In this document: piece after piece, positions 4,826 through 62,545 of the stretch
Position numbering within the stretch: position 1 is the first letter of the stretch
How the letters are laid out: each line of letters opens with the position of its first letter
Source: Leucoraja erinacea
Taxonomy: Eukaryota
Assembly (NCBI RefSeq): GCF_028641065.1
Contig: NC_073391.1
Span: 45,942,001-46,006,000, forward strand
Reading direction: 5' to 3'
Length of the DNA stretch: 64,000 nucleotides
Translations under genes and position numbers: made by a program
The notes under the pieces: model-generated
What the model was told of the DNA's origin: nothing
Seen by the model: the letters and a program-made list of their open reading frames with translations, nothing else
The model's database searches: none

Positions 4826-6019
4826 TCAGTTGGGAGAGGCCAGTGGCTTCTCCACGGCGTGAACTTGCTGGTGGGTCTTCAGGTTGGAAAACCGCGTGAA
4901 TCCCTTCCCGCACTCAGAGCAGATGAACAGTCTCTCCCCGGTGTGAACTTGCTCATGTCTCTTCAGGTAGATCAACCTAGTGAACCCCTTCCCGCACTCA
5001 GAACAGATGAACGGCCTCTCCCCGGTGTGAGTTCGCTGGTGCAATTGCAGCCGAGACACATCGAGAAATACTTTCCCGCACACGGAACAAGTGAACGGTC
5101 TCTCCGTGGTGTGAAGCCGCTCGTGTTTTTTCAAATAGTTCAACCCAGTGAATCCCTTCCCACACACGGAACAGGCGAACGGCCTCTCGCCGGTGTGAAT
5201 CCGCTGGTGTGATCGTAGCCGGTATAAATGTATAAATCCCTTCCCACACTCAGAACAAGTGAACGGCCTCTCCCCGGTGTGAATAGGCTGGTGTGTCTGC
5301 AGCTGCGATAATTGTACAAATCCCATCCCACACACGGAACAAGTGAACGGCCTCTCCCCAGTGTGAATTCGCCGGTGGGTCAGCAAGCTGGAAGAGTCAG
5401 TGAATCCCTTTCCACACTCGGAGCAGATGAACGGCTTGTCCCCGCTGTGAATCTGCTCGTGTCTCTGTAGCCCAGAGAAATCAATGAACCCCTTCCCGCA
5501 CACAGAGCAGGTGAACGGCCTCTCTCCAATGTGTATCCGCTGGTGTGACTGCAGGTGAGAGGACTGTATAAACCCCTTCCCACACTCATAGCAGGTGAAC
5601 GGCCGCTCCCCGCTGTGAATCCGCTGGTGCTTCTGCAGTCCCGACAGCTGAGTAAATCCCTTGCCGCACTCGGAGCAGGTGAAGGGTTTCTCCCCGGTGT
5701 GAAGCTGGTAGTGTGTCCTGAGATTCGACAATTGAACGTACCCTTTCCCACACACGGAGCAGGTGAACGGCCTCTCCCCCGTGTGAATCTGCCGGTGTCT
5801 CTGCAGCCCGGACAGTGCCGTGAACCCCTTCCCGCACTCAGAGCAGGTGAACGGCCTCTCCCCGGAGTGGGTTCGCTGGTGCCTCTTCAGGTAGCAGACC
5901 TGAGCGAATCCCTTCCCACAATCGGGGCAGGCAAACGGTTTCTCCACGGTGTGGTCCTGCTGGCGGGGAGATTGATCGAGTCCCTGCCCGCGCTCAGGGC
6001 TGGTGGACGATTTCTCCAT
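4826..6019 (-). CDS. C2H2 zinc-finger protein, 13 fingers, 397 aa
   Basis: Uninterrupted ORF of CxxC-12-HxxxH repeats with TGERP linkers; acceptor TTTACAG at 6144; cognate promoter cassette at about 9080-9300. Confidence 0.9.
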   Translation of the reverse strand: MEKSSTSPERGQGLDQSPRQQDHTVEKPFACPDCGKGFAQVCYLKRHQRTHSGERPFTCSECGKGFTALSGLQRHRQIHTGERPFTCSVCGKGYVQLSNLRTHYQLHTGEKPFTCSECGKGFTQLSGLQKHQRIHSGERPFTCYECGKGFIQSSHLQSHQRIHIGERPFTCSVCGKGFIDFSGLQRHEQIHSGDKPFICSECGKGFTDSSSLLTHRRIHTGERPFTCSVCGMGFVQLSQLQTHQPIHTGERPFTCSECGKGFIHLYRLRSHQRIHTGERPFACSVCGKGFTGLNYLKKHERLHTTERPFTCSVCGKVFLDVSRLQLHQRTHTGERPFICSECGKGFTRLIYLKRHEQVHTGERLFICSECGKGFTRFSNLKTHQQVHAVEKPLASPN

Positions 6020-6177
6020 CGCTGCAAGCTCTCTGGTGTCTTTGGCGGCTCAGCTGACACAGTGAGTCCGTCCCGCGCGTTCACTTGCTGGTGAACTGAA
6101 GGAGTTTTAGATTCCCGGATGTCGATCCTCTCCCTGTTCTATCCTGTAAAAAGAGTTTACAATAAATGAACAGTTTA

Positions 6178-11870: not shown

Positions 11871-12043
11871 GTTCCAAACGTGGTCATTTTAGTCTCTACT
11901 AGACCAAGTGGGACCCGTTGGGCCCTGTTCCCCCAACGCAATATTCCTCCACTCACCCATAGCCCTCAACTGTGCAGGTGCGGCTGATGTTTTCAAAGTT
12001 TAAAATGGTAATAATGTAAAATATATCAATGTGAACGCATCTC

Positions 12044-12770: not shown

Positions 12771-13869
12771 CAGGATCTCGATGTAAACCACGTCGGCGAT
12801 GAAGTTGTACTCGATGCGGGGGCTGTCAGGAGGTGGGGGTGGGGGAGGGAGATGCCGAGGCTGCGGCCTAGTCCTCGCCCCGGGTCCCGCTCCTCCCCAT
12901 CCCCACAGCAGGGCCCGGAGCAGGGGGCTATGGTGGAGTGGTGGAATATAGTGTTGGGGAATGGGTTGCGTTGGGGGACCAGGCATCTCATGTGATTGGA
13001 CCCAACAGGTCCCACGTTGTCTAGTACATAGATACAGATAGATGGCGAGTTGAAGCATCCACTCTGTGACAGCGAGGCTGACAGGAAGCTGGGGGGACAA
13101 ACTGGCTGGCGGCAATCAACGTCAACTTTCTATTCGCTGACTTGCTATTTGTCTGCGCCACAGTGGGCCGTCTCTGCCAGTCATCCACCTGTGATTTGGC
13201 CCGTTCTTTTTAACTCCATCAGCGAGGGTAGCCTCGCCTGTTGGGCAAGTCCCACGTCCCCACTATGAGTATTTCCGTGGCCATGTCCCGTGGATATTCT
13301 GCTTTATGGTGACCCACCCCCAGGGGATTGATGGTGATGAACTGGACGATGGCAATGCCATTGAGTGCCAGTTAGATGACCGTGCTCCTGTAAACATAGA
13401 AAATATGTTTTCTGCGCAGAGGGAGCAGAGGGAGAGACTGCAACCCTAAGATTTTTGCCTCCACCACAGTGAGGAGGTGTTTGGAGGACTCATTGTGGTG
13501 GAAGTTAATTTGTGTTTATTGTTGTTATTATTGTATCACCGCCACAAAATTTCAATATGATCAATGGCTGATCATCAATTCAACTCGGAGTAGGCCATCC
13601 CCTGAGCTTGCACCGCCATTCGATATGATCATGGCTGATCATCCAACTCAGTATCCAATCCCTGCCTGATCCCTTTAGTCACAAGGGCCACATCTAACTC
13701 CCTCTAAATATAGCCAATGAACTGTGGCCTCAACTACCTTCTGTGGCAGAGAATTCCACAAATTCACCACTCTCCGTGTAATTGCTTGTATCATCTGATC
13801 ACACTCTCTTGAGGCAGGAAATCCATGCTTGTAGTCACAAACACGCTCTGCGGTTCTGCAACACATCGC

Positions 13870-14783: not shown

Positions 14784-14930
14784 AATATTAAATCCCAGTG
14801 TTTAAGAAGGAACTGCAGATGCTGGAAAATTGAAGGTAGACAAAAAATGCTGGAGAAACTCAGCGGGTGCAGCAGCATCTATGGAGCGAAGGAGATAGGC
14901 AACGTTTCGGGCCGAAACCCTTCTTCAGAC

Positions 14931-15840
14931 TAAAGATCTTATAGCTTATAGCTATAGGGAGGTTTCACGGCAGTCGGGTCACGACCCATGACCTGTACTG
15001 TTGCTACTCTACTCCAAATGGATTACACGCGATGAACTGCAGGTAGGCACTTACCATTGTTTCCAGCGTTGCGGGCCCGTTAAAACCCGCCGAAAATGTC
15101 AATTTTTGCGCTGTAAATAATTATGGAAATCGGGATAAGCGCGAGAGACATTTAGCCTACTTCAGAATTCCAAAAGTGAGGAGAAATGACGGTAGATAGA
15201 AACGAGAGCTGAAGGGACAACAACAGCCAGAGTGCTTAGCGAACATTGGCCGTTTGCTCACTGCATTTCATCAACAGTAAGGCATTATTTGTGTTTTTCT
15301 TGATTCCTTTGGCATCTAAAAAGTTTCAGAAGTGATAAATCTGGCTGTAATTTTTTTAAATCGCCCATGGTTCTCGTGGGTTTTTACATACAAAATGAAA
15401 ACGCATCTGAAGAAAAATTTACAGCCAGATTTATCACTTCTGAGACTTTTTAGATACCAAAGGAATCAAGAAAAAACACAAATAATGCCTTACTGTTGAT
15501 GAAATGCAGTGAGCAAACGCGATAATTCCCAATATTTTCAATGTTTACCCAGCACTTTAGCTGCTATAGTCCCTTCAGTTCTCGCTTCTCTTTACCTTCA
15601 TTTCGCTTCACGTTTGGAATTCTAAAGTTGGGTACATGTCTCTCACACTTACCCCGACTCCCACAATTTGTTTCAGCGCAAAAATTCAAAATTTTAGCGG
15701 TTTTTAACAGGTAGGAAAGTACGCGTTTCTAGCATTAATAACATGTACCGGAAGTGATGGATGTCTTCCAGTTGGATTTAGCGGCTCCGTGCGTCGAGCC
15801 CTATGACCCAGTGACCTTTCGTGCAACCATAAGATCTTTG
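14931..15840. mobile_element. Non-autonomous DNA transposon (P-element-like fold-back MITE), 910 bp
   Basis: 8-bp TSD CTTCAGAC (14923-14930 / 15841-15848); termini TAAAGATCTTAT...ATAAGATCTTTG; long internal inverted repeat; splits a Penelope-derived repeat. Confidence 0.8.
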
Positions 15841-16756
15841 CTTCAGACTGATAGGGGGTGGGGGGGGGCGGGGAGAAGAAAGGAAAAAAGGAGGAGGAGC
15901 CCGAGGGCCGAGGGGAGAGATAGGAAGGGGAGGAGACACAAAGGGTTAACAGAATTGTGAGAATTCAATGTTCATGCCACCAGGATGCAGACTCCCCAAG
16001 CGGAATATGAGGTGCTGTTCCTCCAATATGAGGTGTAATCCCAGCTCAGATACAGCAATGACAATAGCAATTGTAATCATGTATTGTCTTTCCTTAAAAT
16101 GAATGAGTGAATACTTTATTGCCACATGTGGCAAGTTAAACACTTTGCTTGCCCCACCCTCACTTATTCTCTCCCCCCACCCCTCATGGCGGGTCCCCCC
16201 CCCCCACCTGGTCCCCCTTTGTTGTTCATCCCCCCCCCACTCTGGTTCCTTTTTGTTCCCACCAGCACATCCTCCGGCCCCATACGACGAGAATAATCTC
16301 CCCCCCCCCCCCCCCCCCCCCACTGATCGTGCCCAGTGAACAGTACTCAGTCCTGGATGTGATGAGAGCAGACACCACAGACTCCAACACTAGCAGACAC
16401 TTGTGGACTTAAGCTTGAACAGAGCTTTGTTGAACAGCAGGTGGACGCAAAATGCTGGAGTAACTCAGCGGCACAGACAGAAGACAGAAATAGGTGACGC
16501 CTCGACCCGAAACGTCACCTATTCCTTCTCTCCAGAGATGCTGCCTGCCCCGCTGAGTTACTCCAGCATTTTGCGTCAGCCTTCAATTTAAACCAGCATC
16601 TGCAGTTCTTCTCCGCACATTAGATCAACAGCGAAAGTATTCAGCAACTGCGATTGTTAACCCTGACCTCCCTCCCCCAGTGTGAACTCTCTCATGGGTT
16701 ACCAGGTTGGGAGACGGAGTGAATCTCTTCCCACACACGGAACAGGCGAACGGCCT

Positions 16757-17188
16757 CTACTCAGTGTGAATTTTCCGGTGTTTCTTCAGGTTGCAGGCTT
16801 GAGAGAACCCCTTCCCACAACCAGAGCAGGTGAAGGGCTTCTCCCCGGTATGAATCAGCTGATGTGTCAGTAGCCTCGATGATGAGGTCAATCCCTTCCC
16901 GCAAACAGAACAGGTGAAGGGCTTCTCCCCCGCGAGAATTCTCTGGTGTGTCCTCAGGTTGCCGGCCTGAGAGAATCCCTTCCCACAATCGGGACAGGGA
17001 ATTGTTTTCTGGGCAATCTGGACAAGTTCAGCGTGAACTTGCTTTTGGTGACTCTTCAGGTTGTTTGCTTGAGTGAATCCCTTCCCACAATCGGGACAGG
17101 GAAATGGTTTCTCCACAGCGTGGTCTTGCCGGTGGGAAGATGGAGTGAATCCCAGCTCACTCTCAGAGCTAGTGAATAATGTCTCCAT
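16757..17188 (-). pseudogene. Short or truncated C2H2 ZNF (4 fingers before a premature TAG)
   Basis: ATG at 17188; linker reads HTE*RPF and a fifth finger follows the stop; finger 2 lacks the last His. Confidence 0.7.
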
Positions 17189-17402
17189 GCTGCGGAATTT
17201 ATGGTGCCTCGTCGGCTCAGCTGACACAGTGAATCCCTCCCACGCGTTCAGGTGCAGGTTTGAGATTCCCGAGCATCAATATCCTCTACTTGTTCTATCC
17301 TGTAAGAAAAGGTTTACACTAAATTAACAGGCAAAGATCGGTATTTCAGACGAGGTGATTTTAGTCTCCATGGTTTGCTGTTTTCGATAAATAACTGGAT
17401 TC

Positions 17403-19932: not shown

Positions 19933-20643
19933 TCAAAGAGTGAAGAAACATCTTGTTGAAACGTCCACTCCAGTGTGAACTCGCTGATGAGCCATCAGGT
20001 TGGAAGACTGGGTGAATCTTTTCCCACACACAGAGCAGGGGTACGGCTTCTCCCCGGTGTGAACCCGCTGGTGTGACCTGAGGTGCGATAATTGGATGAA
20101 TCCCTTCCCACACACAGAGCAAGTGAACGGCCTCTCCCCGGTGTGAATCCGTTGGTGCGATTGAAGCTGAGACAATTGAATGAATCTCTTCCCACACACA
20201 GAGCAGGGGAACGGCCTCTCCCCAGTGTGAATCCGCTGGTGTGACCCGAGATGCGATAATTGAATGAATCCCTTCCCACACTCAAAACAGACGAACGGCC
20301 TCTCCCCGGTGTGAATCCGCCAATGTGACTGTAGCTGAGATAACTGAATGAATCCCTTTCCACACTCAAAACAGACGAACGGCCTCTCGCCAGTGTGGAT
20401 CCGCCAGTGTGATTGCAGCTGAGATAACTGAGTGAATCCCTTCCCGCACTCAGAACAGACGAACGGCCTCTCGCCAGTGTGAACTCGCTGGTGTGTCTGC
20501 AGCTGAGACAGCTGAATGAATCTTTTCCGGCACACGGAACAGGCGAACGGTCTCTCCCCGGTGTGAATCCGCTCGTGTACTAGCAGCCGGGAAGTTTGAG
20601 CAAATCCCTTCCCACACTCAGAGCAGGTGAATAATGTTTCCAT
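19933..20643 (-). CDS. C2H2 zinc-finger protein, 8 fingers, 236 aa
   Basis: ATG ([11 protein letters not shown]) at 20643; eight intact fingers; acceptor at about 21169; promoter cassette at 22262-22560. Confidence 0.85.
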
Positions 20644-21622
20644 GCCGTGACCCCCCCCTGGCACTTCGTCGGTCAGTATGTCACAGTGACTCCTTCCTGC
20701 ACTTGGAGAGTTGAACAACCAACCTCCAGAGGGGATGCAGCTGTTGTGTTCTCAGGGAACTGGATCGAGAGCATGATCCATATTTGTACTGCAGATGAAA
20801 TATATGTTCACTTTTTGATCAATGACCTGAAGCAGCCGACAAGGTGGCATCCAATCTCACTCCAACATTGTACGCGTGCTTAGTTCCTCTGCATCGTGAC
20901 CAGTTTGTTACCTTCAGCTGTGTCAAGGGTCGAAGCTCCCTCCACGGTCGGTTGTCTCGACTCACTCACTCAAGGGTGGGAGAATCACTGCCCGCGAGGT
21001 TACTGTATGGTATGTCATCCCTTTACGGAAATAAAGGAAACACGCATCCCCTTTTCCATAATACAAGGATCGATGACATTCAGGACCGGAGAACTGAACA
21101 ACGCCACTGCAGATCAAATGTGTCGTTGAGCTTGCGATTGGCAGCTGCAAATTCTCCGCTTTCCCCCCCTGCAAAATGAGTTACAAAAAGGACATTAATT
21201 GGTTAAGTATAGTGTTTCAGATTAGATCATTTTAGTCTCTGCGGTGTGTTTACCAAAGTTAGATACAAAGTGCTTGAGTAACTCGGCGGATCAGACATCA
21301 ACTCTGGAGGAAAAGGACTGGTGGTGTTTCAGGGTGACACCCATCTTGAGAATGAAAGCTAGTGGAATCAAGGGATAGGGGGAGAAGGCAGGCATGGATT
21401 ATTGATTGGGGACGATCAGTCATGATCACAATGAATGGCGGTGCTGGCTCGAAGGGCCGAATGGCCTCCTGCACCTATTTTCTATGTTTAAGCATGGGGT
21501 GGGTGGTGGGTGGTGTGAAGAGCTGGAGGTGGGAAAAGTCCAGGATCAATGGCCACAGAGGACCTCAGGTAGGGAGGTGCCTGGTAGACCCACTGTTGGC
21601 AGGGGGACGTATGATCTCGAGA

Positions 21623-25392: not shown

Positions 25393-25962
25393 TCTACCCA
25401 CAGTTGGGAGAGGCAACTGGTTTCTCCACGGCGTGAACTCGCTGGTGGGTCATCAGGTGGGAATATTGTGCGAATCCCTTCCCACACTCGGAGCAGATGA
25501 ACGGCCTCTCCCCGGTGGTGTGAACTCTCTGATTGTCGCTTCCCACACCCGGAGCAGATAACGTGGACTCTCGGCCTCATGAGTGAATCGCTTCCCACAC
25601 TCGGGACAGTTGAAGGGCTTCTCCCCGGTGTGAATGCGCTGATGTGTCTTCAAGCTGCTCACATGAGCGAATCCCTTGCCACAATCAGAGCAGATGAACG
25701 GCCTGTCCCCAGTGTGAGTTCTCTGGTGTGCCTGCAATACAGTCGAGTCAATGAACCCCTTCCCACACTCGGAGCAGGAGAACGGCCTCTCCCCGGTGTG
25801 AATTCTCTGGTGCCTCTTCAACTGGTTTGCATGAGTGAATCCCTTCCCACAATCGGGACAGACAAATGCTTTCCCCAGAGCGTGATCTTGCTGGTGGGTC
25901 ACCGGGTGGGGAGATTGAGTGGACCCCTGCTCACACTCAGAGCTGGTGGATAATGTCTCCAT
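25393..25962 (-). pseudogene. C2H2 ZNF pseudogene, paralogue of 35680-36795
   Basis: Near-identical N-terminus [13 protein letters not shown]; 3 intact fingers, then a scrambled, frameshifted stretch at about 25510-25585, then the terminal finger. Confidence 0.75.
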
Positions 25963-26317
25963 GCTGTCAACTCCCCGGCGTCTCGTCAGCTCAGTGAAGC
26001 CCTCGCAAGGTGCTGGTGAACTGAACGACACTGCGGATCTGATGGGTTGAGTTTGAGATTCCCCAACACAAATCTTCTGCTTGTTCCACCTTGAATAAAA
26101 GAGTTCACAATAAACATTAATAGATTAAGAAGAGTGCGTCAGAAGAAGTGATTTTAGTGTCAACGGTGAGCCTTGTCACAAAGCGGTGGGTTACGCATGT
26201 CTTGCTCTTTACACCTGGAACACCTTGCGGTGAAGTGCCGTCCCTTCCACTTCACCTCCATCATCATGGACACGGTCTGCATCCAACCCAGGAAGATGCA
26301 CAGAGTCTTTTACCCAG

Positions 26318-35679: not shown

Positions 35680-36795
35680 CTACCCACAGTTTGGAGAGGC
35701 AACTGGTTTCTCCACAGCGTGAACTCGCTGGTGGGTCACCAGGTGGGAATATTGTGTGAATCCCAACCCACACCCGGAGCAGATGAACGTCCTCTCCTCG
35801 GCGTGAATTTGCTGATGTGTCAACATGCTGGTCAAATGAGTAAACCCCATTCCACAATCAGAGCAGGTGTACGGACTCCCCCCAGTGTGAATTCTGCTGT
35901 GTCTCAGCAACGCAGATGAACGAGGGTATCCCTTCCCACACACAGTGCAGGTGAACGGCTTGTCCCCACTGTGAATTCTCTGGTGTGTCTGCAATGCGTC
36001 CGAGTCAATGAATCCTTTCCCGCAGTCGGGGCAGGTGAACGGCCTCTCCACCATGTGAACTCTGCGGTGTCTCAGTAACGCAGACGAGCGAGTGTATGCT
36101 TTCCCACACTCGGTGCAGGTGAATCGCTTCTCCCCGCTGTGAATTCTCTGGTGCGTCAGCAATGCGTCTGCGTCGACGAACCTCTTCCGGCACTCGGAGC
36201 AGATGAACGGCCGCTTGTGAATTCTCTGGTGCACCACTAACGCAAAGGAATGAACAAATCCCCTCCCACACTCAGAGCAGATGAACGGCCTCTCCCCGCT
36301 GTGAATTTTCTGGTGTCTCGCTAACGAACACGACTGAGTGAATCCCTTCCCGCACTCGGGGCAGACGAACGGCCGCTTGTGAATTCTCTGGTGCGCCACT
36401 AACGCAAAGGAATGAACAAATCCCTTCCCGCACTCAGAGCAGGTGAACGGCCTCTCCCCGGTGTGAATTTTCTGATGCCTCACTAGCGTATACGATTGGG
36501 TGAATCCCTTCCCACACATGGAGCAGGTGAACGGCCTCTTCCCGGTGTGAATCCTCTCGTGCGCCACTAACGCAAAGGATTGAACGAATCCCTTCCCGCA
36601 CTCAGAGCAGATGAATGGCCTCTCCCCGGTGTGAATTCTCCGGTGCCTCGTCAAGTGGCCTGCTTGAGTGAATCCCTTCCCACAATCGGGACAGACAAAT
36701 GGTTTCCCCAGAGCGTGATCTTGCTGGTGGGTCACCAGGTGGGGAGATTGAGTGGACCCCTGCTCACACTCAGAGCTGGTGGATAATGTCTCCAT
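35680..36795 (-). CDS. C2H2 zinc-finger protein, 12 fingers, 371 aa
   Basis: ATG at 36795; intact ORF; two shortened HKRPF linkers; promoter cassette at 39107-39410. Confidence 0.9.
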   Translation of the reverse strand: METLSTSSECEQGSTQSPHLVTHQQDHALGKPFVCPDCGKGFTQAGHLTRHRRIHTGERPFICSECGKGFVQSFALVAHERIHTGKRPFTCSMCGKGFTQSYTLVRHQKIHTGERPFTCSECGKGFVHSFALVAHQRIHKRPFVCPECGKGFTQSCSLARHQKIHSGERPFICSECGRGFVHSFALVVHQRIHKRPFICSECRKRFVDADALLTHQRIHSGEKRFTCTECGKAYTRSSALLRHRRVHMVERPFTCPDCGKGFIDSDALQTHQRIHSGDKPFTCTVCGKGYPRSSALLRHSRIHTGGSPYTCSDCGMGFTHLTSMLTHQQIHAEERTFICSGCGLGFTQYSHLVTHQRVHAVEKPVASPNCG

Positions 36796-37214
36796 GCTGT
36801 CAACTCCCCGGCGTCTCGTCAGCTCAGTGAATGCCTCGCAAGGTGCTGGCGAACCCAACGACACTGCGGATCTGATGGGTTGAGTTTGAGATTCCCCAAC
36901 ACAAATCTTCTGCTTGTTCTACCTTGAATAAAAGAGTTCACAATAAACATTAACAGATTAAGACGAGTGTGTCAGAAGAGGTGGTTTTAGTGTCAACGGT
37001 GAGCCTTGTCACAAAGCGGTGGGTTACGCACTTTACACCACGAACACCTTGCGGTGAAGTGCCGTCCCTTCCACTTCCTGAGGAAATTCACATCCATCAT
37101 CAAGGACACGGTCTACATCCAACCCAGGAAGACATCTGCCTAGCACTGGCCAACGGACACCAGTCAGCGTAGTAGATGAGTAGAGGGACATGTGGCACTA
37201 TATTAGGACATCCA

Positions 37215-39939: not shown

Positions 39940-40817
39940 CTAGACTAAGTGGGGCCCGTTGGGTCCCAGTCACCATGGGGAGGGTGTGTGGTGGTGGGGG
40001 GGTGTGGGGTAGGAGGGAAGTGTGTATGTGGGGGGAGGGAGGGGTCTGCGAGGGGGGGGAAGGAGGGCTGTGGGAGCGGGTGTGTGTTGGCGGGGTGAAA
40101 GATATAGGAGGAGGTGGTTTGGGGGAAGGGGTGTGTGTGGCCGGGGTTTGTGGAGGGGGGTGTGTGTGTGGGCGCGGGGGTATGTGTGGGCGGGGGGGGG
40201 GGGGGGGGGGGAGGGGTTTTGGGCAGGGTGTGTTGTGGAGGAAGGGTTTGTGGGTGGGGGAGGATATGTGGGAGGGATGGGTGAGTGGGAGGGAGGGGTA
40301 TGTGGGGGGGGGGGGGGGGGAGGGAGGAGTGTGGGGGCAGAGACATAAGCAAATGGCTTTCAGTATCACGGGAGAGGGGGGCAGGAGCCAGTGAGGGGGA
40401 CCAGAGGGGGTTGGGGGTGCAATGGGGACTCACAGCGGTCGCAGGTCGCTTCGTTGGTCGTTCTCCTCCACCGGGATCAGAATCTCCGCTTTCCGATTGG
40501 TGACATCAATGCCACCTCTGACTCCGCACTGGCTGCGTCGGGCCATTTCCGGTCCCTCCATCTAAAAATTGTGTCCAGATGGAGATCTCCGCCGGCCATC
40601 CAGAACCTTCCGCAGCTGCAGTAAAGACGCGATGGCGCCGGTAGGGGAGGGGCCATCCCGCGGAGTGACAGTAGAAGGGACCACTCCGCGCGGCGCTGAA
40701 TGGCAGGAGAGGAAATCGATCTGCGCACGAGCGGTTTTTAAGATTTTGAAACCTCGATAACACTTACCAGCTTCCAGCTATCAGAACGAAACTTGGTACA
40801 ATCGCAGCATAGGAGAG
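39940..40817 (-). mobile_element. Helitron-like element with a G-rich low-complexity interior
   Basis: Hairpin plus CTAG at 39940-39970; 40735-40800 resembles the other Helitron-like bodies; G/GT tract at 39975-40420. Confidence 0.5.
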
Positions 40818-42645: not shown

Positions 42646-44613
42646 CTACCCATAGTTGGGAGAGGCAAATGGTTTCTCCACAGCGTGAATTCGCTGGTGT
42701 GTCTTCAGGTTTGAAGATTGAGTGAATTTCTTCCCACACTCAGAGCAGGTGAACGGCCTCTCCCCTGAATGAATTCTCTGGTGTACCATTAACACAGATG
42801 ACCGAGAGAATCCCTTCCCACACTCAGAGCAGGTGAACGGACGTTCTCCAGAGTGAATTCTCTGATGTTTCAGTAACACAGACGACTGAGTGAACCCCTT
42901 CCCACACTCAGAGCAGGTGAACGGCCGTTCTCCAGAGTGCATTCTCTGGTGTGTCAGGAACACAGACGCCTGAGTGAATCCCTTCCCACACTCAGAGCAG
43001 GTGAACGGTCTCTTCCCAGGGTGAAGGTTGAGATGTTTTCGTAAAGTCGATGAATGTGCGAATCCCTTCCCACAATCAGGACAGACAAATGGTTTCTCCC
43101 CAGTGTGAATTCGCTGGTGGGATACCAGGTTGCAAGATTGGTTGAATCCCATCCCGCACTCGGAGCAGGTGAACGGCCTCTCCCCCGTGTGAATTCTCTG
43201 ATGAATCTTTAGGTTGTTTGCTACAGTGAATCGCTTCCCACAATCGGGACAGGCAAATGGTTTCTCCTCCGTGTGAACTCGCTGGTGGGATAGCAGTTGG
43301 GAAGATTGGCTGAATGCCTTCCTGCACTCAGAGCAGGTGAATGGCCTCTCCTCCGTGTGAATTCGCTGGTGTCTCAGTAACTGAGATGAACGAGTAAATC
43401 CCATCCCACATTCAGAGCAGGTGAACGGCCTCTCTCCAGTGTGAATTCGCTGGTGTGTCTTCAGGTTTGAAGATTGAGTGAATTTCTTCCCACACTCAGA
43501 GCAGGTGAACGGCCTCTCCCCTGAATGAATTCTCTGGTGTACCACTAACACAGATGACCGAGAGAATCCCTTCCCACACTCAGAGCAGGTGAACGGACGT
43601 TCTCCAGAGTGAATTCTCTGGTGTTTCAGTAACACAGACGACTGAGTGAATCCCTTCCCACACTCAGAGCAGGTGAACGGCCGTTCTCCAGAGTGCATTC
43701 TCTGGTGTGTCAGGAACACAGACGCCTGAGTGAATCCCTTCCCACACTCAGAGCAGGTGAACGGTCTCTTCCCAGGGTGAAGGTTGAGATGTTTTCGTAA
43801 AGTCGATGAATGTGCGAATCCCTTCCCACAATCAGGACAGACAAATGGTTTCTCCCCAGTGTGAATTCGCTGGTGGGATACCAGGTTGCAAGATTGGTTG
43901 AATCCCATCCCGCACTCGGAGCAGGTGAACGGCCTCTCCCCCGTGTGAATTCTCTGGTGAATCTTTAGGTTGTTTGCTACAGTGAATCGCTTCCCACAAT
44001 CGGGACAGGCAAATGGTTTCTCCTCCGTGTGAACTCGCTGGTGGGATAGCAGCTGGGAAGATTGGCTGAATGCCTTCCCGCACTCAGAGCAGGTGAATGG
44101 CCTCTCCTCCGTGTGAATTCGCTGGTGTCTCAGTAACTGAGATGAACGAGTAAATCCCATCCCACATTCAGAGCAGGTGAATGGCCTCTCTCCAGTGTGA
44201 ATTCGCTGGTGATTCTGTAACGCATATGATTCAATGAATCCCTTCCCACACTCAGAGCAGACAAACGGCTTCTCCCCTGTATGAATTCTCTGGTGCAGCA
44301 GCAACTTATATGATCCAATGAATCCCTTCCCACATTCAGAGCAGGTGAACGGCCTCTCTCCAGTGTGAATTCGCTGGTGATTCTGTAACGCATATGATTC
44401 AATGAATCCCTTCCCACACTCAGAGCAGGTGAACGGCCTCTCCCCTGTGTGAATACGCTGATGCCTCTTCAGTAGGTACGATTGAGTGAATCCCTTCCCA
44501 CAATCGGGACAGGTAAACGGTTTCTCCACAGTGTGAACTTGCTGTCGGGTCAACAGGTGGGAAGATTGGTTTAATCCCTGCCCACACTCAGAGCTGGCCA
44601 GTAATTTCTCCAT
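42646..44613 (-). CDS. C2H2 zinc-finger protein, 22 fingers, 655 aa
   Basis: ATG ([11 protein letters not shown]) at 44613; intact ORF; putative intron 44735-44927; includes a 756-bp internal tandem duplication. Confidence 0.92.
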   Translation of the reverse strand: MEKLLASSECGQGLNQSSHLLTRQQVHTVEKPFTCPDCGKGFTQSYLLKRHQRIHTGERPFTCSECGKGFIESYALQNHQRIHTGERPFTCSECGKGFIGSYKLLLHQRIHTGEKPFVCSECGKGFIESYALQNHQRIHTGERPFTCSECGMGFTRSSQLLRHQRIHTEERPFTCSECGKAFSQSSQLLSHQRVHTEEKPFACPDCGKRFTVANNLKIHQRIHTGERPFTCSECGMGFNQSCNLVSHQRIHTGEKPFVCPDCGKGFAHSSTLRKHLNLHPGKRPFTCSECGKGFTQASVFLTHQRMHSGERPFTCSECGKGFTQSSVLLKHQRIHSGERPFTCSECGKGFSRSSVLVVHQRIHSGERPFTCSECGKKFTQSSNLKTHQRIHTGERPFTCSECGMGFTRSSQLLRHQRIHTEERPFTCSECRKAFSQSSQLLSHQRVHTEEKPFACPDCGKRFTVANNLKIHQRIHTGERPFTCSECGMGFNQSCNLVSHQRIHTGEKPFVCPDCGKGFAHSSTLRKHLNLHPGKRPFTCSECGKGFTQASVFLTHQRMHSGERPFTCSECGKGFTQSSVLLKHQRIHSGERPFTCSECGKGFSRSSVLMVHQRIHSGERPFTCSECGKKFTQSSNLKTHQRIHAVEKPFASPNYG

Positions 44614-44799
44614 GCTGTGACCTGTCTGGCGTCCGGGCGGATCAGCTGACGCAGTGAATCCTCCCACACGTTCAGGCGCCGGTGAAATAAACGAGTTGGA
44701 GATTCCTGAACATCAATCCTCTGCTTCTTCTACCCTGTAAAAAGAGTTGACCATAAATTAACAGGTAAAGATCTGTCCGGGTCGGGACCCTTCCTCTCA

Positions 44800-47537: not shown

Positions 47538-48930
47538 GAGGTACACAAAAATGCTGGAGAAACTAAGCGGGTGCAGCAGCATCTATGGAGCAATGGGGAT
47601 AGGCAAAGTTTCAGGCCGAAACCCTTCTTCAGACTGATAGGGGGTAGGGGGAAGCGGGGAGAAGAAAGGAAAAAGGAGGAGGAGGAGCTCGAGGGCTGAG
47701 GGAGAGGTGGGAAGGGGAGGATACAGCAAGGGTTAACTGAATTGTGAGAATTCAATGTTCATGCCACCAGGATGCAGACTACCCAAGAGGTATGAGGCGA
47801 GTATGAGCACCATATGAGGGGCTGTTCCTCCAAATTACGGTGTTGCACACTCTGGCCGTGGAGGAGGCCCAGAACAGAGAGGTCGGATATGGAATGGGAG
47901 GGGGAGTTGAAGTGCTGAGCCACCGGGAGGTCAGGATGGTTAGTGTGGACCGAGCGGAGGTGTTCGGCGAAACGATCACCAAGCCTGCGCTTGGTCTCAC
48001 CGATATAGATCAGCTGACATCTAGAGCAGCGGATGCAATAGATGAGGTTGGAGGAGGTGCAGGTGAACCTCTGTCGCACCTGGAACGACAGCTTGGGGCC
48101 TTGAATGGAGTTGAGGGGGGAGGTAAAGCTACAAGTAAGGGAAAGTGCCCGGGGAAGGGGTGGAGCAGGAGGGAAGGGAAGAATTGACAAGGGAGTTACG
48201 GAGGGAGCGGTCTTTGTGGAAGGCAGACGGAGGGAAATGGGAAGATGTGGCGAGTGGTGGGGTCACGTTGGAGGTGGCAAAACTGACAGAGGACTATTTG
48301 TTGTATGTGCCGGCTAGTGGGGTGAAAGGTGAGGACCAGGGGGACTTGTTGCGAGTGGGGGGGATGGGGAGAGAGCGGTGTTGCAGGGTATGGAGGAGAC
48401 CCTGGTGCGAGCCTCAACTATAGTGGGGGAGGGGAAACCCCGTTCCCTGAAGATTGAGGACATTTGCGATGCCTTGGTGTGGAACACCTCATCCTGGGAG
48501 CAGATGCGGCGTAGAGGGAGGAATTGGGAATAGCGGATGGAGTACTTACAGGAAGCAGGGTAGCAGGACGAATAGTCAAGATAGCCATGGGAGTCAGTGC
48601 GTTTGTAGTGGATGTCGGTCAGAAGTCTATCACCTGCGATGGAGATAGTGAGGTCAAGGAATGGTAGGGAAGTGTCGGTAATGGTCCAGGTATATTTGAG
48701 TGCCGGTTGGAAGTTGGTGGTGAAGCGGATGAAGTCAGTCAGTTATGTGTGGGTGCAGGAGATGGCACCAAAGCAGTCGTCGATGTAATGGAGGTAGAGG
48801 TTGGGGATGGGGCCATGGTACGCCTCGAACAAGGATTGTTCGACGTAACCGACAAAGAGGCAGGCGTAGCTGGGGCCCATGTGCGTGCCCATAGCTACGC
48901 CTTGTATTTGGAGGAAATGGGAGGAGTCAA
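47538..48930 (-). mobile_element. Penelope-like retroelement, 5'-truncated (RT C-half, GIY-YIG endonuclease, terminal repeat)
   Basis: QGVAMGTHMGPSYACLF and YIDD on the - strand; LIYCIRCSRCQLIYIGETKRRLGDRFAEH; CTGAAGAAGGG terminal motif. Confidence 0.85.
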
Positions 48931-50332: not shown

Positions 50333-51832
50333 CTACCCATGGTTTGGAGAGGCAAATGGTTTCTCCACAGCGTGAAGTCGCTGGTGGGTCTTCAGGTTAG
50401 AAGATTGAGTGAATTTCTTCCCACACTCAGAGCAGGTGAACGGCCTCTCCCCTGAGTGAATTCTCTGGTGTCCCAGTAACGCAGATGACTGGGAGAATCC
50501 CTTCCCACACTCAGAGCAGGTGAACGGACGCTCTCCAGAGTGAATTCTCTGGTGTATCAGTAACACAGACGACTGAGTGAACCCCTTCCCACACTCGGAG
50601 CAGGTGAACGGCCGTTCTCCAGAGTGAATTCTCTGGTGTGTCAGGAACACAGATGCCTGAGTGAATCCCTTCCCACACTCAGAGCAGGTGAACGGTCTCT
50701 TCCCAGGGTGAACGTTGAGATGTTTTCGTAAAGTTGATGATTGAGCGAATTCCTTCCCACAATCGGGACAGACAAATGGTTTCTCCGCAGTGTGAACTCG
50801 CTGGTGGGATACCAGGTTGCAAGATTGGGTGAATCCCATCCCGCACTCGGAGCAGGTGAACGGCCTCTCCCCCGTGTGAATTCTCTCATGCACCACCAAC
50901 GCAAAGGAGTGAGCAAATCCCTGCCCACACTCGGAGCAGGTGAACGGCCTCTCCCCGGTGTGAATTCGCTGGTGGGTCTTCAGGTTACTTGCTACAGTGA
51001 ATCCCTTCCCACAATCGGGACAGGCAAATGGTTTCTCCGCAGTGTGAACTCGCTGGTGGGACACCAGTTTGGAAGATTGGCTGAATCCCTTCCCGCACTC
51101 GGAGCAGGTGAACGGCCTCTCCTCTATGTGAATTCTCTGGTGTCTCAGTAACTCAGATGAACGAGTAAATCCCTTCCCACAATCAGAGCAGGTGAACGGC
51201 CTCTCTCCAGTGTGAATGCGCTGGTGTATCTGTAACGCATACGAATCAATGAATCTCTTCCCACACTCAGAGCAGAAAAACGGCCTCTCCCCCGTGTGAA
51301 TTCTCTGGTGTAGCAGCAACTGAGATGAACAAGTAAATCCCTTCCCACATTCAGAGCAGGTGAATGGCCTCTCTCCAGTGTGAATCCGCTGATGTATCTG
51401 TAACGCATATGATTCAATGAATCCCTTCCCACACTCAGAGCAAGTGAACGGCCTCTCTCCTGTGTGAATTTTCTGGTGTCTCTTCAGTAGGTACGATTGA
51501 GTGAACCCCTTCCCACAATCTGGACATGTAAGCGGCTTCTCTGCAGCGTGAACCTGCTCGTGATTCCTCAGGTTGCGAGAATGTGTGAATGCCTTCCCAC
51601 ACTCGGAGCAGTTAAATGGCCTCTCACCGGTTTGAACTCGCGGACGTGTTGGCAGCCTCTGCCCGGTGTGAATCTGCTGGTGCCACTTTAGCTCGCTAGC
51701 TTGAGAGAATCCCTTCCCACAATCGGGACAAGTAAACGGTTTCTCCACAGTGTGAACTTGCTGTCGGGTCAACAGGTGGGAAGATTGGTTTAATCCCTGC
51801 CCACACTCAGAGCTGGCCAGTAATTTCTCCAT
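50333..51832 (-). CDS. C2H2 zinc-finger protein, 16 fingers, 499 aa
   Basis: ATG at 51832; intact ORF; N-terminus identical to the 42.6-kb and 60.5-kb genes. Confidence 0.92.
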
Positions 51833-52014
51833 GCTGTGACCTGTCTGGCGTCCGGGCGGATCAGCTGACGCAGTGAATCCTCCCACACGTTCAGGCGCAG
51901 GTGAAATAAACTAGTTTGAGATTCCTGAACATCAATCCTCTACTTTTTCTATCCTGTAAAAAGAGTTGACCATAAAAACAGGTAAAGGTCTGTCCGGATC
52001 GGGACCCTTCCTCT

Positions 52015-57849: not shown

Positions 57850-58110
57850 GACACGATGTGTGTGTGGAGTGGGCTCCACGTGTGTGTGTTGTGTGGAGTT
57901 GGGCTCCATTGCCGCCGGTAACACGGTGTGTGTGTGTGTGGTGGAGTTGGGCTCCATTGCCGCCGGTAACAAGGTGTGTGTGTGTGGGGTTGGGCTCCAT
58001 TGCCGCCGGTAACACGGTGTGTGTGTGTGTGGGGTTGGGCTCCATTGCCGCCGGTAACACGGTGTGTGTGTGTGGGGTTGGGCTCCATTGCCGCCGGTAA
58101 CACGGTGTGC
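57850..58110. repeat. Minisatellite, unit of about 40 bp: GTTGGGCTCCATTGCCGCCGGTAACACG(GT)n
   Basis: Five near-perfect units plus one degenerate unit, differing in (GT)n length. Confidence 0.9.
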
Positions 58111-58282
58111 GGGGGATTTGGGCGCCGACGGCCCCGGGCTGTGAACGAGCGGCGGCCGCGCGCCACAAGCAGCCGTTGGCCCCGGGCGTTTGAATCCCAA
58201 CGGCTGCAGCGCGAGCTAAGGGGGGGGGGGGGGGATTGGAGGAGCGGTTCAGCCGGCCACGTGGGTCCCACTTAGTCTAGTA

Positions 58283-58302
58283 CAAAGATCCTAGGATCTT
58301 TG
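58283..58302. mobile_element. Putative P-like transposon excision footprint
   Basis: Palindrome CAAAGATCCTAGGATCTTTG between 8-bp direct repeats GTCTAGTA. Confidence 0.7.
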
Positions 58303-58427
58303 GTCTAGTATGTTATAAGTACAGGTAGACACGTGGTTTGGGTCACAAAATGAAACGAAAAAGCACCTCTGCCCATGGGCTACAAATAAATGAGTTCTGT
58401 TGTAAACCCCTTGTCTTACAAACTTAA

Positions 58428-59584
58428 AGCACACGGCATTGGGGGTTCAGTATTGATGTGGATAGAGAACTGGCTGGCAAACAGGAAGCAAAGAGTAGGA
58501 GTAAACGGGTCCTTTTCACCAAAGATCTTTGCTTTTCACAATGGCAGGCAGTGACTAGTGGGGTACCGCAAGGCTCAGTGCTGGGACCCCAGCTATTTAC
58601 AATATATATTAACGATCTGGACGAGGGAATTGAAGGCAATATTTCCAAGTTTGCGGATGACACTAAGCTGGGGGGCAGTGTTAGGTGTGAGGAGGATGCT
58701 AGGAGACTGCAAGGTGACTTGGATAGGCTGGGTGAGTGGGCAAATGTTTGGCAGATGCAGTATAATGTGGATAAATGTGAGGTTATCCATTTTGGTGGCA
58801 AAAACGGGAAAGCAGACTATTATCTAAATGGTGGCCGATTGGGAAAGGGGGGAGATGCAGCGAGACCTGGGTGTCATGGTACACCAGTCATTGAAGGTAG
58901 GCATGCAGGTGCAGCAGGCAGTAAAGAAAGCAAATGGTATGTTGGCTTTCATTGCAAAAGGATTTGAGTATAGGAGCAGGGAGGCTCTACTGCAGTTGTA
59001 CAGGGTCTTGGCGAGACCACACCTGGAGTATTGCGTACAGTTTTGGTCTCCAAATCTGAGGAAGGACATTATTGCCATAGAGGGAGTGCAGAGACGGTTC
59101 ACCAGACTGATTCCTGGGATGTCAGGACTGTCTTATGAAGAAAGACTGGATAGACTTGGTTTATACTCTCTAGAATTTAGGAGATTGAGAGGGGATCTTA
59201 TAGAAACGTACAAAATTCTTAAGGGGTTGGACAGGCTAGATGCAGGAAGATTGTTCCCGATGTTAGGGAAGTCCAGGACAAGGGGTCACAGCTTAAGGAT
59301 AAGGGGGAAATCCTTTAAAACCGAGATGAGAAGAACCTTTTTTTTCACACAGAGAGTGGTGAATCTCTGAAACTCTCTGCCACAGAGGGTAGTTGAGGCC
59401 AGTTCATTGGCTATATTTAAGAGGGAGTTAGATGTGGCCCTTGTGGCTAAGGGGATTAGGGGGTATGGAGAGAAGGCAGGTATGGGATACTGAGTTGGAT
59501 GATCAGCCATGATCATATTGAATGGCGGTGCAGGCTCAAAGGGCCGAATGGCCTACTCCTGCACCTAATTTCTATGTTTCTATG
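58428..59584 (+). mobile_element. CR1 (HER1-like) LINE, 5'-truncated
   Basis: ORFs 58458-58967 and 58828-59370 ([18 protein letters not shown]-terminus) and tail. Confidence 0.88.
58520..58531. mobile_element. Putative P-like transposon excision footprint
   Basis: Palindrome CAAAGATCTTTG between 8-bp direct repeats CTTTTCAC; absent from the homologous CR1 site at about 47240. Confidence 0.7.
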
Positions 59585-60370: not shown

Positions 60371-60553
60371 GAGGAAGGGTCCCGACCCGGACAGATCTTT
60401 ACCTGTTAATTTATGGTCAACTCTTTTTACAGGGTAGAAGAAGCAGAGGATTGATGTTCAGGAATCTCTAACTCGTTTATTTCACCGGCGCCTGAACGTG
60501 TGGGAGGATTCACTGCGTCAGCTGATCCGCCCGGACGCCAGACAGGTCACAGC

Positions 60554-62545
60554 ATGGAGAAATTACTGGCCAGCTCTGAGTGTGGGCAGGGATTAAACCA
60601 ATCTTCCCACCTGTTGACCCGACAGCAAGTTCACACTGTGGAGAAACCGTTTACCTGTCCCGATTGTGGGAAGGGATTCACTCAATCGTACCAACTGAAG
60701 AGGCACCAGCGAATTCACACCGGGGTGAGGCCGCTCACTTGCTCTGAGTGTGGGAAGGGATTCTTTCGTTTATCGGCGTTGCAGGTACATCGGAGAATTC
60801 ACACGGGGGAGAGGCCATTCGTCTGCTCGGAGTGCGGGAAGGGATTCACTCGTTCATTCTCATTGCTGAAACACCAGAGAATTCACACCAGGGAGAGGCC
60901 GTATGTCTGCTCGGAGTGCGGGAAGGGATTCAGCCAAGCTTCCCTGCTGGTGTCCCACCGGCAAGTTCACGCTGTGCAGAAACCATTTCCCTGTCCCGAT
61001 TGTGGGAAGGGATTTGCTGAAGCAGACGGCCTGAGGAGGCACCAGCAAATCCACACCGGGGAGAGGCCGTTTGTCTGCTTTGTGTGTGGAAAGGGATTCG
61101 CTCGTTCGTTTTCATTGTTGATGCACCAGCGGATTCACACTGGCGAGAGGCCGTTCATCTGCTCCGAGTGTGGGAAGGGGTTCAACCAAGCTTCCCACCT
61201 GGTGACTCACCAGCAACTTCACGCTGCAAAGAAACCATTTCCCTGTCCCGATTGTGGGAAGGGATTCACACAGGCAGACAGCCTGAAGAAGCACCAGCTT
61301 ATTCACACCAAGGAGAGGCCGCTCACCTGCTCCGAGTGTGGGAAGGGTTTTTTTCGTTCATCTGCGTTACGGATACACCGGAGGATTCACACCGGGGAGA
61401 GGCCCTTTGTCTGCTCCCAGTGTGGGAAGGGATTCAGCCAATCTTCCCACCTGAAGAGACACCAGCAAGTTCACGCTGTGGTGAAACCATTTACCTGTCC
61501 CGATTGTGGGAAGGGATTCTCTCGAGCGAGCCAGCTAAAGTGGCACCAGCAGATTCACACCGGGCAGAGGCTGCCAACATGTCCGCGAGTTCAGACCGGC
61601 GAGAGGCCGTTTACCTGCTCCGAGTGTGGGAAGACATTCACACATTCTCGCAACCTGAGGAATCACGAGCGGGTTCACGCTGCAGAGAAGCCGCTTGCAT
61701 GTCCAGATTGTGGGAAGGGGTTCACTCAATCGTGCCAACTGAAGAGGCACCAACATATTCACACAGGGGAGAGGCCGTTCACTTGCTCTGAGTGTGGGAA
61801 GGGATTCATTGGATCATCTCAGTTGCTGATACACCAGCGAATTCACACGGGGGAGAAGCCGTTTGTTTGCCCTGAGTGTGGGAAGAGATTCATTGAATCA
61901 TCTGCATTACAGATACACCAGCGAATTCACACCGGAGAGAGGCCGTTCACCTGCTCTGAATGTGGGAAGAGATTTACTCGTTTTTCTGTCATGAGAACAC
62001 ACCAGAGAATTCACACCGGGGAGAGGCCGTTCACCTGTGCTGAGTGTGGGAAGGGATTCAATCAATCGTATCTGTTGGTGACACACCAGAGAATTCACAC
62101 CGGGGAGAGGCCGTTCACTTGCACTGAGTGTGGGAAGGGATTCGCTCATTCATCTACGTTAGCAAGACACCAGAGTATTCACACTGGGCAGAGGCCATTC
62201 AGCTGCTCTGAGTGTGGGAAGGGCTTTGCTCACTTTGATCAGCTGAGAGCCCACCAGCGAGTGCACACTGGGGAGAAACCATTTGCCTGTCCCGAATGTG
62301 GCAAGGGATTCACTCAAGCCGGCAATCTGAAGAAGCACCGGCAAAGACACACCGGGGAGAGGTCGTCAACCGGTTTTGGGTGTGCGGAGGGGCTCAGCGA
62401 GCCGCCCGCGACGGTAGAAATCACGGTGAGGCGTGGCCGAATCCCACGGAACCGGGAACCCGCCTGGAGAGGGAGCTCGCGCCGTGCGCCGCACCAGGGC
62501 TGCGCCACAGCGGACCCGGGCTCTGACGTGGAGACGGTCAAATGA
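60554..62545 (+). CDS. C2H2 zinc-finger protein, 20 fingers plus a non-finger C-terminal tail, 663 aa
   Basis: ATG at 60554 (in-frame stop upstream; the ORF track starts at a GTG); intact ORF. Confidence 0.92.
   Translation: MEKLLASSECGQGLNQSSHLLTRQQVHTVEKPFTCPDCGKGFTQSYQLKRHQRIHTGVRPLTCSECGKGFFRLSALQVHRRIHTGERPFVCSECGKGFTRSFSLLKHQRIHTRERPYVCSECGKGFSQASLLVSHRQVHAVQKPFPCPDCGKGFAEADGLRRHQQIHTGERPFVCFVCGKGFARSFSLLMHQRIHTGERPFICSECGKGFNQASHLVTHQQLHAAKKPFPCPDCGKGFTQADSLKKHQLIHTKERPLTCSECGKGFFRSSALRIHRRIHTGERPFVCSQCGKGFSQSSHLKRHQQVHAVVKPFTCPDCGKGFSRASQLKWHQQIHTGQRLPTCPRVQTGERPFTCSECGKTFTHSRNLRNHERVHAAEKPLACPDCGKGFTQSCQLKRHQHIHTGERPFTCSECGKGFIGSSQLLIHQRIHTGEKPFVCPECGKRFIESSALQIHQRIHTGERPFTCSECGKRFTRFSVMRTHQRIHTGERPFTCAECGKGFNQSYLLVTHQRIHTGERPFTCTECGKGFAHSSTLARHQSIHTGQRPFSCSECGKGFAHFDQLRAHQRVHTGEKPFACPECGKGFTQAGNLKKHRQRHTGERSSTGFGCAEGLSEPPATVEITVRRGRIPRNREPAWRGSSRRAPHQGCATADPGSDVETVK

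Follow-up and report, generated by a model that had tools for sequence, protein, structure and literature searches.

The 910-bp insertion described here appears to combine two superfamilies of DNA transposons, ends of the P type being wrapped around a palindromic interior whose coding remnant, judged from its letters, is the first exon of an ISL2EU (PHIS)-type transposase. It lies in a 64,000-nucleotide stretch of the genome of the skate Leucoraja erinacea (the window, in what follows). We consider it likely that the element has such a layered anatomy, whether it moved as a unit or was assembled in place. That it moved as a unit, a non-autonomous transposon in which an ISL2EU-derived MITE travels within P-type ends, is the reading that we prefer, although we hold it tentatively and at somewhat less than even confidence. 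P-type ends around an ISL2EU interior suggest the capture of one transposon by another, here in a cartilaginous fish. The original prediction was that of a P-derived MITE, and this the analysis does not bear out: the coding remnant failed the test of homology with a P transposase, and the element should therefore not be filed under that name.

The insertion and its target site

The prediction of a real insertion, by a non-coding and non-autonomous DNA transposon of 910 bp, was well founded, since the element is flanked by a target-site duplication (TSD) and two paralogous sites are empty. Paralogues of the host repeat carry a single uninterrupted site at 47539-47785 (exact) and at 54294-54159 (where the 8-mer has one mismatch), and because both cross the junction with the site present once, the 8-bp duplication is a true TSD. 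The nearest empty paralogue runs on into a GIY-YIG frame. The termini of the element, TAAAGATCTTAT at the start and ATAAGATCTTTG at the finish, are complementary at 11 of 12 positions.

The TSD had been described as exactly 8 bp. The duplication is real, as the empty sites attest, but the literal repeat is 9 bp (CTTCAGACT on either side), base 14931 being a T like the next base of the flank, and a length of 8 bp presumes that this T is mutated. From these letters we favour an 8-bp TSD with a change from C to T at 14931, since both footprints described below have a C there and repeats of exactly 8 bp. A strict scan of the window (ends with at most one mismatch from CAAAGATC, an exact 8-bp repeat, a span of up to 6 kb) gave three pairs, against none in 60/60 Markov-simulated windows. 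The TSD is of 7-8 bp in all three insertions, with empty sites found (the 910-bp element reads 8 or 9), and five of the six ends begin with CAAAG, the sixth with TAAAG. As to the motifs GGGTCA and TGACCC, said to be repeated near both ends, the former is indeed near the left end and the latter near the right, but each as one full copy only, adjoined by shorter TGACC copies; both hexamers are common across the window (21 and 20 copies).

A blastn search for a second copy of the element in the window gave only the element itself and short matches. The segment 13439-13458, which agrees with the right end at 18/20 positions, was rejected as a further copy, having no TSD-flanked partner end, and is probably a chance match. 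Another sequence, CATAGATACAG at 13027-13042, straight after a Helitron-like end, resembles the beginning of a P-type element; within 8 kb it has no second end that would complete an 8-bp repeat.

Table 1. Coordinates of the features in the window
Feature	Position	Strand	Remarks
Element, 910 bp	14931-15840		Non-coding DNA-transposon insertion
End-motif pair CAAAGATC ... GATCTTTG			8-bp repeats outside
Left TSD CTTCAGAC	14923-14930	+	9 bp with T14931 included; site unoccupied at 47627 and ~54.25 kb
Right TSD CTTCAGAC	15841-15848	+	Same 8-mer on both sides
Left shell	14931-14956	+	15-bp P-type end, 7-nt tandem/templated repeat, ATA (14954-14956, candidate inner duplication)
Inner ISL2EU-derived palindromic element, 872 bp	14957-15828		Putative boundary; GG at both ends under the ATA reading
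Right shell	15829-15840	-	12-bp P-type end; opens with ATA, second candidate duplication copy
Left subterminal motif GGTTTCACG...GGGTCA	14961-14981	+	Inverted partner 15804-15828; p ~0.08 alone
Right subterminal motif	15804-15828	-	TGACCC...CGTGCAACC on the plus strand
Outer arm, left	15076-15248	+	79% complementary to 15539-15711
Left THAP exon-1 remnant	15095-15276	+	Start codon damaged, one stop, ~11 codons gone after 15253
Inner arm, left	15251-15356	+	Against 15413-15519: 102 matches, 3 mismatches; exon end and intron start
Unpaired centre, 55 bp	15357-15411		
Inner arm, right	15413-15519	-	
Right THAP exon-1 remnant	15494-15692	-	More decayed, one stop; RVCSLHFIN then GTAAG
Empty paralogous site	47539-47785	+	Penelope-like (GIY-YIG) copy; 226/245 aligned bases as in host flanks
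Penelope-like GIY-YIG frame	47759-48262	-	~20 short terminal-repeat fragments scattered through the window
Footprint 1	58275-58310		TSD GTCTAGTA, 20-bp perfect palindrome 58283-58302, TSD; at a Helitron-like 3' end
Footprint 2	58512-58539		TSD CTTTTCAC, 12-bp perfect palindrome 58520-58531, TSD
C2H2 clusters	4826-6049, 16757-17275, 19933-20751, 25453-26124, 35680-36918, 42646-44712, 50333-51910, 60455-62545		

The surroundings consist of C2H2 zinc-finger frames, with up to ~22 fingers each and in duplicated units, among CR1, Penelope-like and Helitron-like repeats, class names that follow Pfam matches (RT, GIY-YIG) and characteristic end motifs. What we take to be Helitron-like 3' ends, with a short palindrome and CTAG before T, are found at 11904(-), 13019, 27875(-), 34027(-), 39945(-) and 58275. 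A tandem array of ~45-bp units with GT runs occupies 57900-58110, upstream of a Helitron-like end.

Two short footprints

The two matching footprints announced at 58.3-58.5 kb proved sound, with exact TSDs and empty paralogues (one and three, respectively). In both, two intact 8-bp TSDs enclose what is left of the two ends, 6-10 bases from each, which meet at a microhomology. Footprint 1 is joined at TA, its empty paralogue being at 39945 on the minus strand, and footprint 2 frameshifts a CR1 reverse-transcriptase frame, its insert being absent from three CR1 paralogues. When the annealing of two identical tails is enumerated, the 20-mer is obtained from TA and the 12-mer from GATC, or alternatively from the 8-nt microhomology AAGATCTT given the tail of the 910-bp element. 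Position 9 of both ends is C in the 20-bp footprint and T in the 910-bp element, and the former thus comes from a sister subfamily. Since the 52.7 kb paralogue keeps the state before the Helitron-like insertion, the order of events at footprint 1 is duplication, Helitron-like insertion, footprint. Footprint 2 shifts the reading frame of a CR1 copy that, over its 3' part, shares 96-97% identity with several others, and it therefore postdates this copy. That the family was mobile after the CR1 wave can accordingly be maintained for this one CR1 copy of a young subfamily, but not beyond it.

It is on these footprints, and not on the terminal motif, that we base the P-type call, because their anatomy equals that of P excision junctions in Drosophila. 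There, excision leaves 3' tails of 17 nt (PMC2895639, PMC5466332, PMC7776569), and the repair junctions of Chan 2010 (Tables 1-3, PMC2895639) contain both TSDs and end remnants, with (AT)/(TA) joins or templated insertions. Our analysis of the two footprints supports the view that CAAAGATC ends behave like P ends, with a probable staggered cut inside the ends. A Pfam scan of 71 of the 130 stop-to-stop frames of at least 100 aa in the window gave only zinc fingers, RT, endonuclease and GIY-YIG, with no remnant of a P transposase and no YqaJ in those frames; the THAP exons are absent from this set because they are too short and broken.

The palindromic interior

Most of the interior is a palindrome of 636 bp (15076-15711; fold z = -32, 20 shuffles), each arm of which, in the inward direction, consists of a THAP exon with GTAAG behind it; on the left this splice-donor-like motif stands at 15277, directly after the exon. 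THAP is the sole Pfam match of the right arm (E=0.0033, under the gathering score), and the left arm alone gave no THAP match against Pfam. In a tblastn search of the window with XP_055509316, the arms alone responded (77% over 52 aa on the left, 57% over 75 aa on the right), the matches stopping at GTAAG. Differences between the arms are spread 9/11/12 over the codon positions (third-position excess p=0.37) and mostly damage the right arm, from which it follows that the arms are decayed copies of one exon; an origin from two divergent functional THAP genes was rejected on the same grounds. The near-identical inner block starts from the deletion point of the left arm, which suggests a later template switch. 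The start of THAP is 165 bp away from one end and 149 bp from the other, near-equal distances once the 13-14 nt repeat of the left end is discounted, and the non-coding similarity of the halves near the termini is marginal (p 0.02-0.74).

Two other interpretations of the palindrome were set aside: a structured RNA, since all 19 Rfam matches are under the gathering score and nearly all are generic hairpin matches to the palindrome, and a nested Kolobok or piggyBac at the TTAA near its edges, since THAP starts ~12 bp inside and the similarity passes TTAA. At 15049-15057 on the minus strand, an ATG is followed at once by a GTAAGT donor. It lies 38 bp before the start of the left THAP and points away from it, and the parent may have had a second, divergent gene that began here. 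Neither the palindrome nor the THAP exons figured in the first description of the element.

The source of the THAP exons

A two-sequence profile of the arms retained three proteins among 168 candidates, all of them from skates, two with the order THAP-HTH_Tnp_4-DDE_Tnp_4 and one a gene model in which THAP is fused to CDK2AP; the closest named proteins come from Leucoraja, Amblyraja and Rhinoraja. An exhaustive search of representatives gave 33 weak matches, of which the 17 scanned all have THAP, one together with HTH_Tnp_4 and none with a P family. With a skate THAP as query, four of eight candidates matched, three with DDE_Tnp_4. A profile of 18 THAP sequences found 21 matches among 5,185 proteins; their partners were DDE_Tnp_4 (11), HTH_Tnp_4 only (1), BTB (1) and CDK2AP (1), six proteins having THAP only and one no domain, and a P, hAT or YqaJ family domain occurred in 0/21. 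In a THAP tree of 21 rows (long or named matches from ~60, with no P-type THAP as outgroup) both arms fall within the skate clade, with support 100/99. Of nine proteins tested, seven have their catalytic residues spaced as in PHIS (D-K-D-D-P-R-E). The order THAP-HTH_Tnp_4-DDE_Tnp_4 defines the ISL2EU transposase (PMC4482050, PMC4122938), and it is this order that the parent of the interior has, exon 1 alone being present in the window.

Leucoraja erinacea has at least four loci of ISL2EU-type transposase. Two of the proteins, XP_055492695 (P0005) and XP_055509889 (P0012), encoded on different large contigs (88 and 140 Mb), are identical at 501/502 residues and have their catalytic residues intact; with XP_055488679 (P0011) they make up a young family (copies 99.8% and ~97% identical, DDE intact in two). 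XP_055509316 (P0003) and XP_032895942 (P0008) have lost the catalytic E and kept the full frame, with 95% identity between Leucoraja and Amblyraja, and it is possible that this second skate lineage was domesticated. In Rhinoraja, the gene model XP_078277539 (P0004) joins this THAP to CDK2AP1, by exaptation or as an artefact of annotation. The open literature searched mentions neither these ends nor a skate ISL2EU; the family of the 910-bp element may already be catalogued in Repbase or Dfam.

The candidate inner piece and its shell

When all inner excisions were tried, a single cut among 1,156 restored an outer inverted repeat of at least 15 bp (the first base being set to C). This cut takes out 14957-15828 together with one ATA, leaves 14931-14956 and 15832-15840 (35 bp), and is bounded by AT/ATA; the runner-up among the 71 repeat-bounded cuts reaches 13 bp. 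On this analysis, the 35-bp shell would have the shape of a third P footprint with a 7-nt templated repeat, a reconstruction that is post hoc and in which the tandem repeat of the left end by itself partly yields such a match. Under the ATA reading both inner ends start with GG, offset by 4-5 nt from each other, and the inner flanks have AT/ATA on both sides in a TATA context, against the A-AT-T expected for ISL2EU. The outer ends of the unit have no GG start and no AT duplication in A-AT-T. An inner boundary at AAT-GG (15017-15021) was rejected, its partner end having no AT.

In the families concerned, the AT duplication was found in all 18 of the 25 ISL2EU families that were examined (Han 2015 Table S2, PMC4482050), the target being A-AT-T, the terminal repeats usually beginning with GG and a second ORF carrying a YqaJ exonuclease (PMC4482050). 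Since TSDs in the PHIS groups are of 0-3 bp, never above 3 in the sources consulted (PMC4482050, PMC12730594), and the one here is of 8, it is unlikely that one enzyme accounts for both layers.

Discussion

Under the reading that we prefer, a P-superfamily transposase would recognise the CAAAGATC ends and insert with an 8-bp stagger; its excision would cut deep inside the ends, leaving 3' tails of at least 11 nt, probably at least 15, which would be joined at microhomologies into palindromic footprints. The second layer would be a foldback MITE, derived from a skate ISL2EU-type transposase gene whose 5' part (promoter region, THAP exon 1, start of the intron) it contains twice; a template switch would have fused the two copies and placed the inner 107 bp on both arms. 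The layers would have been joined once, most simply by insertion of the inner MITE at TATA within a footprint, giving P-type ends around the subtermini of a THAP element, and the resulting 910-bp unit would then have been carried by the P-type enzyme into the Penelope-like repeat where it now resides. The element would act, if its sequence is a guide, as a P-ended non-autonomous transposon with a non-P coding remnant; the TSD, the footprints, the palindrome and the identity of the THAP exons are observed, and the P enzyme, the order of assembly and the mobility as a unit are what we infer here. Against this reading stand the single copy in the window, the short P-type sequence, 12-15 bp per end, the lack of a P transposase remnant in the 71 frames scanned, inner flanks unlike A-AT-T, the post hoc reconstruction of the shell and the marginal similarity of the halves near their termini. 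In Drosophila, P requires internal transposase sites beyond the terminal repeat (PMC7776569), and with only 12 bp of P type on the right, such sites would here need ISL2EU sequence as their source.

The layers may instead have been assembled in place, a P insertion and its excision leaving the 35-bp footprint into which an ISL2EU-derived MITE later inserted, duplicating AT/ATA; we regard this as possible but doubtful. The unique AT/ATA-bounded cut speaks for it, as do the two further footprints 42-43 kb away, the GG at both inner ends, usual for ISL2EU, and the regular occurrence, among the products of P repair, of templated insertions with intact tails on either side (PMC2895639). However, a 35-bp target has a low prior (we estimate the chance of insertion into the shell at ~1-2%), the inner ends are shifted by 4-5 nt, their flanks are not A-AT-T and the inner element has no free copy in the window. 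We slightly favour assembly in an ancestor, because few of the 190 TATA sites of the window lie in the 35-bp target and because of this missing free copy; the signature of the shell would persist whether the assembly was local or occurred once in an ancestor. Inner ends that are unequal by 4-5 nt are expected if they are no longer the ends in use.

It is also conceivable, though improbable, that there is one layer only, and that the parent was a member of the ISL2EU clade (DDE_Tnp_4) with CAAAGATC ends and 8-bp TSDs that was cleaved inside these ends, the 910-bp element being a fusion of two 5' ends of this parent. The near-equal distances of THAP from the two ends agree with this, and the skate does have a young and catalytically intact family of such transposases (P0005, P0012); on the other side, the duplication is AT in every ISL2EU family examined, no PHIS group exceeds 3 bp, and the footprints fit P chemistry. 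We would give a small chance, though not a negligible one, to the broader possibility that a skate lineage departs from the superfamily rules, either because a DDE_Tnp_4 (ISL2EU-clade) transposase has adopted 8-bp TSDs and now cuts inside its ends as P does, or because an autonomous ISL2EU within P ends is moved by a P transposase, XP_055492695 and XP_055509889 lying inside CAAAGATC ends.

The termini had been called P-like on the ground that CANRG termini typify the P superfamily. The anatomy of the footprints upholds this attribution, but the start of the element does not, since CAAAG also fits YARNG and cannot separate P from hAT; CANRG as a terminal motif was not found in the literature searched. 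A T at the second target position, present in 3/3 sites, suits the preferences of hAT and those of P as well. YARNG termini have been ascribed both to hAT (PMC3014272) and to P (PMC2820524), and CAAAG/TAAAG starts with an 8-bp TSD are what a hAT element would also have. A hAT shell with captured ISL2EU sequence, the short palindromes being aborted products of gap repair, is nevertheless very improbable in our opinion: hAT excision, like that of MULE, forms hairpins on the flank (PMC5499845) and leaves it free of element sequence, whereas 2/2 footprints are short and symmetric and keep element ends and intact TSDs. With two footprints, aborted gap repair by another family may still be at work. 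Least probable of all is a simple MITE derived from P, in the parent of which a domain swap had given the P transposase an ISL2EU-type THAP exon. In its favour, the ends and footprints are of P type, the non-autonomous Izanagi, assigned to P, likewise has degenerate THAP exons and an 8-bp TSD (PMC2820524), and a closer unannotated skate parent could exist (the best match being only 77%); against it, the P catalytic family accompanies this THAP in 0/21 and 0/4 proteins and the AT/ATA reconstruction of the shell is left unexplained.

P elements of vertebrates are known mainly from zebrafish, medaka and the domesticated THAP9, and in assays zebrafish THAP9 excises but does not integrate (PMC10983969). 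Footprints that arose naturally and kept their TSDs intact would testify, in a cartilaginous fish, to P-type insertion carried to completion and to excision with long tails, and the lengths of footprints genome-wide would measure the tail without the enzyme. A survey of 2022 (PMC9179366) did not detect ISL2EU in any of the four non-teleosts tested (elephant shark, gar, coelacanth and amphioxus) and proposed a transfer at the base of teleosts; the interior described here reveals, in contrast to this absence, an ISL2EU lineage in skates, a young and intact family included. More generally, a THAP exon and an 8-bp TSD do not suffice for assignment to P. Should the 910-bp unit prove to be multi-copy, it would show that new elements crossing superfamilies can be seeded by excision scars.

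Comparison with known systems

The ~500-aa THAP-HTH_Tnp_4-DDE_Tnp_4 transposase of ISL2EU/IS4EU (PHIS; PMC4482050) is the source of both arms, and its skate relatives fit D-K-D-D-P-R-E; under the putative ATA boundary, the inner piece may also begin with GG at both ends and be bordered by a repeat of 2-3 bp. Unlike these elements, the 910-bp unit has CA outer ends, an 8-bp TSD and inner flanks other than A-AT-T, with no YqaJ remnant in the window frames scanned; in the literature examined ISL2EU is unreported from cartilaginous fish. The Drosophila P junctions of Chan 2010 (PMC2895639) have the same succession of TSD, remnant, short microhomology, remnant and TSD, and the same templated insertions, but another end sequence, and we are dealing here with natural germline scars in a vertebrate, with a tail of at least 11 nt (at least 15 if the shell is a footprint). 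Zebrafish Pdre2/THAP9 (PMC10983969, PMC7776569) is likewise a vertebrate P-type system with 13-bp ends starting with CA, an 8-bp TSD and internally deleted copies; its ends are however CATACCTGTCAAC, and its deleted copies come from the P gene, which our interior does not.

Medaka Izanagi (PMC2820524), assigned to P from its termini plus THAP, is similar in being non-autonomous and ~1 kb long, with a CAA start, an 8-bp TSD and degenerate THAP exons. It differs by its 27-bp ends and by one THAP instead of two inverted ones, and its THAP exon, compared by eye from supplement S2, looks like another subtype; THAP alone is no proof of a P origin, as the skate element shows. BuT5 (PMC3698922) is also among the closest cases. 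The P-MITEs of Anopheles, including the hybrid AgaP2-P12MITE (PMC1562414), share P ends and an 8-bp TSD around an unrelated filler, with ends of different sources, but they keep 114-198 bp of P sequence around a filler that is not a second superfamily, whereas the skate element keeps 12-15 bp per end.
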